A stretch of DNA of 64,000 nt from Escherichia coli (GTDB lineage Bacteria; Pseudomonadota; Gammaproteobacteria; Enterobacterales; Enterobacteriaceae), in the NCBI RefSeq assembly GCF_041886205.1, contig NZ_CP169029.1. One strand, written 5' to 3'. The notes below the pieces were generated by a model. It made no database searches. It saw nothing but the letters and a program-made list of their open reading frames with translations, and was not told the DNA's origin. A program made the position numbers and the translations under genes. Positions within the stretch are counted from its first letter, which is position 1; each line of letters starts with the position of its first letter. Positions 53,331 to 54,614 of this stretch are shown here, one piece after another.

Positions 53331-53819
53331 TTACCAGTCGAAAGTGGGTAAACCCGGCAGGCATTCAGCGCTGGCATCCAGATGAATGAGACTGACGCCA
53401 TAACGTCGGGTAAGTGTGACAACCAGACGGCGGAACGTTTTTGACAGCCCCAGGCGTTTAAGCCGCAGAACCGGGTATGACCACGCATCGGTACGTAACA
53501 GATATCCGCTACCTGTGAAATGAATCCATTCTGATTCGCCGGTGTCATTCGTCTGATGTGACAGCGAGTACAGCCAGGCGTTGTCCTTTGCAGTGATATG
53601 CGCGGTACTGCAGCGTATGCCGGTCAGGGCAGCAAATGGTGGCGTGCAGTCTGTTGAGACCCGGTCAGATTCATCAACAACACGAAGGGAGTGGCCATTG
53701 TCGCAGACCACGTTAATCAGTTCAGCGAGATTAACACCATCGACGTCAACGACAATTCGTCCCATGTTCAGCGCCTGCACGTTAACGCTGTCTGCTTCCA
53801 GCGTCAGAGTCAGTTTCAT
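53331..53819 (-). CDS. YeeW-like hypothetical protein
   Basis: 162-aa ORF immediately downstream of the cbtA-like toxin; the position matches yeeW in CP4-44. Confidence 0.5.
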
Positions 53820-54193
53820 TGTTTCGCCTCCGGATGCTTCCCCTGGGTAATGTTATTTACCGTTCTGTAATTGTCGCGGGTCATCAGGCCGGTCGCCCTG
53901 CGAGCCCGGAGGATATCGATGCTGTTTATTAACTGAGAACGGGTACAGGCACTGAATTCCGGCTGGTCGGTACGCACCAGTGCGTATTTTTCAACAAGAA
54001 AGTTCACTGCATCGCACAGTGAAATGCCAGCTTCAATATGCTGCTCAATCACACATTCATCGGCAAACGGTGTGTCATTCAGTGTGAGGCCATAATGCTG
54101 GTCCAGCAGTCGGATGAGCAGTGTCTGCCAGATGGTGACGGGAGACGGGCAGCGAGATACCTCCCGTACATGTGTGTCGGATAATGTTTTCAT
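53816..54193 (-). CDS. cbtA: CbtA/YeeV-family type IV toxin (cytoskeleton-binding)
   Basis: [46 protein letters not shown]…[27 protein letters not shown], closely similar to YeeV/YkfI/YpjF. Start at the internal Met of ORF 53816-54337. Confidence 0.85.
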
Positions 54194-54239
54194 CTTAAGT
54201 TCTCTGTAACTGGTAGTGCTAAAGGTGAGAGCTTCGGGG

Positions 54240-54614
54240 TTATGAGGTGGTTGCGGGTGTCTGTGCCGGATAAACAGCCAGATAAACGTAACCACAGGAG
54301 CCGAGGGTGTCGGCTTCGCAGGTCTGCCCTTTTGCATACAGCGTGACGGTATGCTGATTTCGGGGATTCAGTTCACCGCTGGTGAGCATGAGCTCCAGTT
54401 GTTTCATCAGCAGCGGAAAGGCCTGGTCCAGATGGTATGCATCTGCGTCGCTGAAGCGGCCTCTGATACCGGCGCGGTCGGCAAGGTAATGCAGGCGGTT
54501 ACCCTCCTGCACCAGACGGGCACCAAAACAGGGCCTCACTGTGCAGGGAAGCCCCCACCAGGGGCGGTCGTGATTGTCGTCGGGATGAGTTATCCCGGAG
54601 AGTTTGTCTGACAC
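54240..54614 (-). CDS. cbeA: CbeA/YeeU-family type IV antitoxin
   Basis: [52 protein letters not shown]…, YeeU/YfjZ/YafW family; GTG start. Confidence 0.85.

Follow-up and report, generated by a model that had tools for sequence, protein, structure and literature searches.

A predicted CbeA/CbtA-type toxin–antitoxin pair of the cbeA-cbtA lineage near the att end of a CP4-44-related tRNA-Phe island in Escherichia coli

Results and discussion

Organisation of the toxin–antitoxin locus

The window, by which we mean the whole 64,000-nucleotide stretch of E. coli DNA analysed here, carries a pair of small co-oriented genes, the first of which codes for an antitoxin of the CbeA/YeeU family and the second for a toxin of the CbtA/YeeV family. 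The pair and the features that immediately surround it are as follows:

54664-54777, minus strand: 37-codon open reading frame within the 162 nt that separate the YeeT-like gene from the antitoxin gene; its ATG overlaps the stop codon of the yeeT-like gene (TGATG)
54622-54629, minus strand: Shine-Dalgarno-like motif AGAGAGGA, 7 nt 5' of the antitoxin GTG, read from the sequence
54240-54614, minus strand: antitoxin gene, CbeA/YeeU family, 124 aa, GTG start
54194-54239, minus strand: 46-nt spacer from the end of the antitoxin gene to the toxin ATG, with a weak ribosome-binding-like motif, AGAGAA
53816-54193, minus strand: toxin gene, CbtA/YeeV family, 125 aa, ATG start
53331-53819, minus strand: DUF5983 (YeeW-like) gene, 162 aa, full length (PF25638, E = 1e-31; PF19419, E = 3e-22)
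53122-53319, minus strand: DUF957 gene, 65 aa, 11 nt 3' of the DUF5983 gene, from the RefSeq annotation of identical DNA; no Pfam match in the copy of the database searched
53056-53082, minus strand: intrinsic-terminator-like hairpin with a 10-bp stem (7 G-C pairs) and a T-rich tail, a match to the consensus only

The interval of 53816-54614 given for the pair in the original prediction proved exact: the toxin stop codon closes at 53816, and the GTG that opens the antitoxin gene begins at 54614; the strand, which had been left unstated, is the minus strand. The antitoxin gene lies directly 5' of the toxin gene on the same strand, the arrangement that characterises the family. Specifically, the toxin (53816-54193) matched Pfam family PF06755, CbtA_toxin, scoring 201.6 bits where the cut-off is 25 (E = 2.9e-60) and spanning all 112 positions of the profile (1-112), while the antitoxin (54240-54614) scored 180.8 bits with PF06154, CbeA_antitoxin, for which the cut-off is 27 (E = 8.4e-54), and covered positions 1-100 of a 101-position profile, both scores lying far above the cut-offs. 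In addition, the antitoxin could be aligned from end to end with nearly identical YeeU-family proteins of solved structure, PDB entries 2INW (E = 4.6e-75) and 2H28 (YeeU; E = 1e-71), these being sequence matches only, and a search of PDB sequences also returned the YfjZ structures 2EA9 and 2JN7 (E = 1.7e-40). The same type of PDB sequence search with the toxin gave nothing meaningful, and no structure of a CbtA-family toxin was found. NCBIfam held no model for either protein, and PADLOC held none for the pair or its small neighbours, the only PADLOC matches being weak ones to PDC-M09B in an 840-aa YeeR-like protein.

A mechanically called 173-aa open reading frame (53816-54337), which overlaps the antitoxin gene, would make the toxin longer but was rejected: the Pfam profile, K-12 CbtA and RefSeq's entry for the identical gene agree on the ATG at 54193, inside this frame, as the start. 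Three plus-strand open reading frames in the same region (54351-54611, 54038-54184 and 53581-53850) were found to be without support and are taken as chance antisense frames.

Comparison with the pairs of K-12

Three pairs of this family are present in K-12 MG1655, in agreement with the original statement that the family occurs there in several copies: cbeA-cbtA in CP4-44, yafW-ykfI in CP4-6 and yfjZ-ypjF in CP4-57. Comparison with all six proteins, which the original prediction had put forward as a check, placed the window pair closest to the first of them. The antitoxin is 87.7% identical at the amino acid level to CbeA, against 59% for YafW and 63% for YfjZ, and the toxin is 86.3% identical to CbtA, against 58.4% for YkfI and 60.6% for YpjF. 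Together with the full-length Pfam matches and the alignment to the YeeU structure, these values bear out the strong similarity to YeeV/YeeU-type proteins that had been noted. On the basis of these identities, the window pair is a representative of the cbeA/cbtA lineage and not a fourth, distant paralogue. A tblastn search of the 64-kb window with the K-12 proteins found this single copy and no further pair.

The window pair shares with CbeA/CbtA of CP4-44 the two Pfam families, the gene order, residue F65 of the toxin and the overlap between the toxin stop codon and yeeW. The leader of K-12 cbeA also has a TAAGGA motif at the same distance from the same GTG start as in the window. Differences were found in the cbeA-cbtA spacer, which measures 88 nt in K-12 (a figure also given in PMC5371832) and 46 nt in the window; in the C-terminal tail of the antitoxin, AQTPATTS in the window and PEMKN in K-12 CbeA; and in the DUF5983 gene, which is full length in the window whereas yeeW of K-12 is shortened to 64 aa. 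YafW/YkfI and YfjZ/YpjF have in common with the window pair the protein families, the architecture, F65, C15 and a position near an att site, and the module context in CP4-6 and CP4-57 (DUF932, antirestriction, RadC-like, DUF987, antitoxin, toxin) is that of the window. They differ in that their spacers are 20 nt long, their antitoxins are without the 14-residue N-terminal extension and their toxins are without the C-terminal tail (PMC5371832).

Residue F65 is invariant in the alignment of the window toxin with K-12 CbtA, YkfI and YpjF. At position 15 the window toxin has Cys, as do YkfI and YpjF, where K-12 CbtA has Arg. When compared with the K-12 alleles, the antitoxin gave a dN/dS of 0.24 and codons 28-124 of the toxin a dN/dS of 0.09, and this codon-level comparison indicates purifying selection on the pair.

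Allelic variation of the toxin

The N-terminus of the toxin behaves differently from its core. Residues 1-27 are only 52% identical to those of K-12 CbtA, against 96% for residues 28-124, and the same N-terminal segment gave a dN/dS of 0.68. Among the CbtA-lineage alleles, residues 5-27 fall into two discrete haplotypes, one of which, PVLPGQAASSRPSPVE, is found in K-12 and E47, and the other in the window, O157:H7, CFIAFB20190167, 190693 and JCM5491. The low identity and the high dN/dS at the N-terminus are therefore explained by K-12 having the other haplotype. The pair of O157:H7 ATCC 35150 (WP_000854914.1 and WP_001280954.1) resembles that of the window in its 46-nt spacer and its 375-nt antitoxin gene; its toxin is 100% identical to the window toxin over residues 1-27 and 95% overall, and its antitoxin is 97% identical. 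Two residues, C47 (Arg in the others) and E79 (Gly in the others), are peculiar to the window toxin among the seven CbtA-lineage alleles compared, and YkfI and YpjF also differ from it at both positions.

Island context

The pair is embedded in a block of genes that extends upstream beyond the features listed above, and the principal landmarks on either side of it are:

60491-63685: Ag43 autotransporter gene
56093-56911: DUF932 gene
55553-56038: antirestriction gene
55061-55552, minus strand: RadC-like JAB-domain (YeeS-like) gene (PF04002, E = 3e-45; RefSeq start at 55537)
54777-54998, minus strand: DUF987 (YeeT-like) gene (PF06174, E = 3e-38)
50964-50985, minus strand: 22-nt remnant of a tRNA-Phe 3' end (attachment-site repeat) at the end of the island, 2.8 kb beyond the toxin gene

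Further upstream genes include a DUF905 gene, a gene of the IrmA family and the gene for the 840-aa YeeR-like protein. The pair belongs to a tightly packed series of genes on one strand (DUF932, antirestriction, RadC-like, DUF987, cbeA, cbtA, DUF5983, DUF957), after which comes the terminator-like hairpin at 53056-53082, the probable 3' end of the transcription unit. A scan of 50000-64000 with Rfam (E up to 1) returned nothing in or beside the pair and a single match, to IsrC (IS102) at 63629-63865; this RNA immediately precedes the Ag43 gene, and K-12 also has it upstream of that gene. The Ag43 gene, yeeR, yeeS, yeeT, cbeA, cbtA and yeeW follow one another in the order seen in CP4-44. DNA identity to K-12 CP4-44 amounts to 96.7% over 58850-63674 (the Ag43 gene and yeeR) and to 97.6% over 54777-55513 (yeeS and yeeT), and to 89-91% for the cbeA and cbtA genes, while CP4-6 and CP4-57 reach only 63-75% against the block. 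The segment 55513-58850 is absent from CP4-44 of K-12. By these identities, the block is CP4-44-like but mosaic, and its breakpoint falls immediately 3' of yeeT.

The original prediction took the presence of the pair as confirmation that the block is CP4-44-like. This holds for the block, with its 96.7-97.6% DNA identity and conserved order, but the pair alone cannot tell CP4-44 from CP4-6 or CP4-57; likeness to CP4-44 can be separated from likeness to the other two because the protein identities differ (86-88% against 58-63%) and the flanking genes are syntenic.

The block is not located at the CP4-44 site, which in K-12 lies between cobU and tmaR, and instead adjoins glcA and a complete Wadjet JetABCD operon. 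The tRNA-Phe remnant at 50964-50985 is an exact 22-mer match, none being expected by chance; when 3 flanking bases are included, it agrees with the 3' end of K-12 pheV at 25 of 26 positions. A 1-base deletion keeps it from matching the exact 3' end. The remnant represents the island's distal attachment-site repeat. K-12 has pheV next to yghD, on the glc flank of the glc-gsp region, and the K-12 pairs are also located near prophage att sites (PMC5371832). The window contains no tRNA gene and ends, at 64000, inside the island. Since the block stands beside glcA and the Wadjet operon and is bounded by a tRNA-Phe remnant, we regard the pair as a cbeA/cbtA-lineage allele in a Phe-tRNA island and not as part of CP4-44 itself. 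As such it may serve as a landmark for that end of this CP4-44-related tRNA-Phe island which is nearer the att site, and may help to set the island apart from the Wadjet defence operon.

The 162-nt gap upstream of the antitoxin

What the 37-codon open reading frame at 54664-54777 preserves is the 3' part of a gene for 214 aa: it aligns with the 3' end of the intact copy in E47 (WP_065304415.1). The intact 5' part of this gene was found in 1941 of 5426 genomes and a gap of the remnant type in 3113. In K-12, only the first few codons are left, by way of a different deletion. The 214-aa gene had no Pfam or NCBIfam match, and matched phrog_5162, a group of unknown function. The intact gene is named 'antitoxin of toxin-antitoxin stability system' in RefSeq and bears a DUF8835 label in another genome. 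The possibility that the gap might hold a structured RNA was also considered and rejected: its folding (z = -1.36) was no better than that of shuffled sequences, and the gap is the remnant of a gene.

Proposed mode of action and alternative readings

Overall, we read the locus, with a probability of roughly 0.85, as an intact two-gene CbeA/CbtA toxin–antitoxin module of the cbeA-cbtA lineage near the att end of a P4-like, CP4-44-related tRNA-Phe island; by homology, its toxin would be expected to be toxic and its antitoxin to neutralise in the type IV mode. The following scheme can be proposed by analogy with the K-12 proteins. The 125-aa toxin would use a surface to which the conserved F65 belongs to bind the H6/H7 loop of FtsZ, and would probably bind MreB as well. 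Division and elongation would both be blocked, giving lemon-shaped, non-growing cells. The antitoxin, 88% identical to K-12 CbeA, would neutralise this effect without contacting the toxin: it would itself bind the filaments of FtsZ and MreB and draw them into bundles. Island stabilisation and stress tolerance are the usual proposals for the role of the family.

The literature agrees with the original prediction that the toxins of this family act on FtsZ and MreB (PMC5371832, PMC5624674). According to the latter, CbtA binds the H6/H7 loop of FtsZ and the flat double-filament surface of MreB independently of one another, cells become lemon-shaped, and the F65S substitution abolishes FtsZ binding in CbtA, YkfI and YpjF. 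CbeA was shown to make no contact with CbtA, its binding partners being FtsZ and MreB; cross-neutralisation extends over the three antitoxins and three toxins of K-12, and the operon shows no autoregulation (PMC5371832). Conserved residues do not guarantee an identical phenotype, because a CbtA from Erwinia that is 63% identical and has kept both F65 and R15 merely makes E. coli cells elongate and has no toxicity there (PMC6521040).

The divergent N-terminus raises the question of whether the toxin might be active with a narrowed or shifted target specificity, for instance towards FtsZ only, which would lead to filaments and not to lemon shapes. The 52% identity and dN/dS of 0.68 of residues 1-27 speak for this, as does the Cys at position 15, since R15C weakens the binding of K-12 CbtA to MreB and abolishes its MreB effect (PMC5624674); the text consulted there describes a strong interaction with FtsZ for both YkfI and YpjF and reports one with MreB for YpjF only. 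Residue 15 does not decide the MreB question, however, because MreB is still bound by YpjF, whose natural residue at this position is C15, and the C15R substitution is without effect in YpjF and YkfI alike (PMC5624674). YkfI and YpjF both give lemon-shaped cells (PMC5371832), and the N-terminal haplotype of the window is a common allele class that includes O157:H7 and other strains and is not specific to this locus, so that we consider a change of specificity unlikely. A different reading is that the pair is intact but silent or attenuated, a passenger of a decaying island that is unexpressed or no longer toxic. Decay is visible around it: the DUF4942 gene lies in two halves, split by an IS110-family element (ISSfl8; transposase at 51662-52666), and the gene 5' of the antitoxin is cut down to its 37-codon remnant. 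Moreover, a simple scan of 52600-57400 detected no sigma-70-like promoter, the changes R47C and G79E are the window toxin's own among the seven alleles, and the fact that antitoxin genes can be deleted in K-12 has been attributed to low toxin expression (PMC5371832). Against this stand two open reading frames that are full length and free of frameshifts, the dN/dS of 0.09 in the toxin core, which points to continued constraint, and the retention of the window allele, at no less than 99% identity, in 51 records. We find this reading improbable.

It may also be asked whether more than two genes make up the functional unit, with DUF5983, and possibly DUF957, acting as extra modulators or as a second antidote. 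The toxin stop codon overlaps the ATG of the DUF5983 gene by 4 nt (ATGA), an overlap found also in K-12, ZYB39 and CFIAFB20190167 and thus kept in four independent alleles. DUF5983 was described as the recurrent downstream partner of CbtA_toxin in a large survey of E. coli (PMC10790755), and a 2026 preprint likewise remarks that the two are consistently linked (bioRxiv 10.64898/2026.06.09.728211). On the other hand, the K-12 pairs all work as two-gene systems without an intact DUF5983 gene, yeeW being truncated and none being present after ykfI or ypjF (PMC5371832), and no function is known for DUF5983. A unit of more than two genes seems quite unlikely to us. We likewise hold out only a slim chance for a more elaborate proposal, that the pair is the core of a longer packed module (DUF987, the 214-aa gene of which a remnant is present here, CbeA, CbtA, DUF5983 and DUF957), in which a translationally coupled DUF5983 might be a third component, as modulator, second antidote or trigger sensor, and the two N-terminal haplotypes of the toxin might reflect different target or partner specificities. 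A role of DUF5983 would have escaped notice because K-12, the strain used for all experiments, lost it in all three copies. For experimental work, an allele with an intact DUF5983 gene, such as that of the window, would be a better starting point than the K-12 copies. Returning to the preferred reading of a two-gene CbeA/CbtA module, its distribution is considered below.

Occurrence

The pair is already known and is an ordinary member of its family. The region 53300-55100 shows 100% DNA identity to E. coli ZYB39 and USDA-ARS-USMARC-49610, and proteins identical to both members of the pair are held in RefSeq under the same family names, namely 'TA system toxin CbtA family protein' (WP_000854899.1, ZYB39) for the toxin and 'type IV toxin-antitoxin system YeeU family antitoxin' (WP_001442992.1, ZYB39) for the antitoxin. 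Of 5426 complete E. coli genomes, 4955 (about 91%) contained the family, the median number of places per genome being 3 and the maximum 15; the pair on its own therefore matters little, being one more copy of a very common family. The particular allele of the window was recovered from only 139 records at 95% identity or more, and from the 51 mentioned above at 99% or more.

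A probable recombination breakpoint and a gene remnant around the cbeA-cbtA pair

The region surrounding the CbeA/CbtA-family pair was compared with cryptic prophage CP4-44 of E. coli K-12. DNA identity was 97% from the Ag43 gene to yeeT and 89-91% across cbeA and cbtA. This drop in identity over 54150-54780, relative to the flanks, indicates a recombination breakpoint directly downstream of yeeT. Among E. coli, the toxin N-terminus occurs as two discrete haplotypes. The features adjoining the pair are as follows:

53331-53819, (-): full-length DUF5983 (YeeW-like) gene, downstream of the toxin gene
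54664-54777, (-): 37-codon ORF, MFRHPENEYDQMDSDAAVDEAILVNAYIFTETGQRAG, inside the 162-nt gap 54615-54776
55061-55552, (-): RadC-like protein with a JAB domain; K-12 homologues YeeS, YkfG and LfgB
within 55513-58850: antirestriction, DUF932, DUF905 and IrmA-family genes, plus the C-terminal portion of a YeeR-like protein of 840 aa

The 37-codon ORF, whose ATG is overlapped by the stop codon of the YeeT-like gene, is the 3' remnant of a 214-aa gene. This gene is intact in E. coli E47 (locus L007, positions 369-1013), where it is placed between the DUF987 gene and yeeU, and the intact form was found in about 1941 of 5426 genomes. In K-12 this gene carries a deletion other than that of the copy in the window.

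On the other side of the pair, the toxin stop codon and the DUF5983 start codon overlap as ATGA, an arrangement kept in K-12, ZYB39 and CFIAFB20190167; none of the three K-12 pairs is adjoined by an intact DUF5983 gene. As for the RadC-like homologues, LfgB of CP4-57 was described in a 2024 report as a protease that cleaves the antitoxin MqsA (PMC10846083). The 3.3-kb stretch 55513-58850 is not present in K-12 CP4-44, where yeeR directly adjoins yeeS. The 840-aa YeeR-like protein gave weak PADLOC matches to PDC-M09B, a candidate defence model (E 5e-6).

Distal end of the island, adjacent genes and the IsrC match

The following features were located near the distal end of the island and beyond it, and next to the Ag43 gene:

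43920-50605, (+): complete Wadjet operon, immediately downstream of glcA
50964-50985, (-): 22-nt tRNA-Phe 3'-end remnant, lacking one G relative to pheV
51096-53025, (-): interrupted DUF4942 gene (N-terminal part 52735-53025, C-terminal part 51096-51362)
63629-63865, (-): match to the Rfam small RNA IS102 (IsrC), at 74.6 bits and E 3e-11

The distal boundary of the island lies at the tRNA-Phe remnant; no corresponding tRNA gene was found within the 64-kb window. The DUF4942 gene is interrupted by an IS110-family element, ISSfl8 (transposase 51662-52666), and is split in the same way in ZYB39, whereas it is intact in CFIAFB20190167, which also carries a ParDE pair that the window lacks.

Just beyond the att remnant, on its outer side, the Wadjet operon encodes JetA (DUF3375), JetB (DUF4194), JetC (an SMC-like ATPase of 1095 aa) and JetD (DUF3322 and JetD_C); in ZYB39 and K-12 this site is instead held by the sslE-gsp type II secretion genes. 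The IS102 (IsrC) match lies directly upstream of the gene for Ag43, and K-12 has the same order (isrC-flu).
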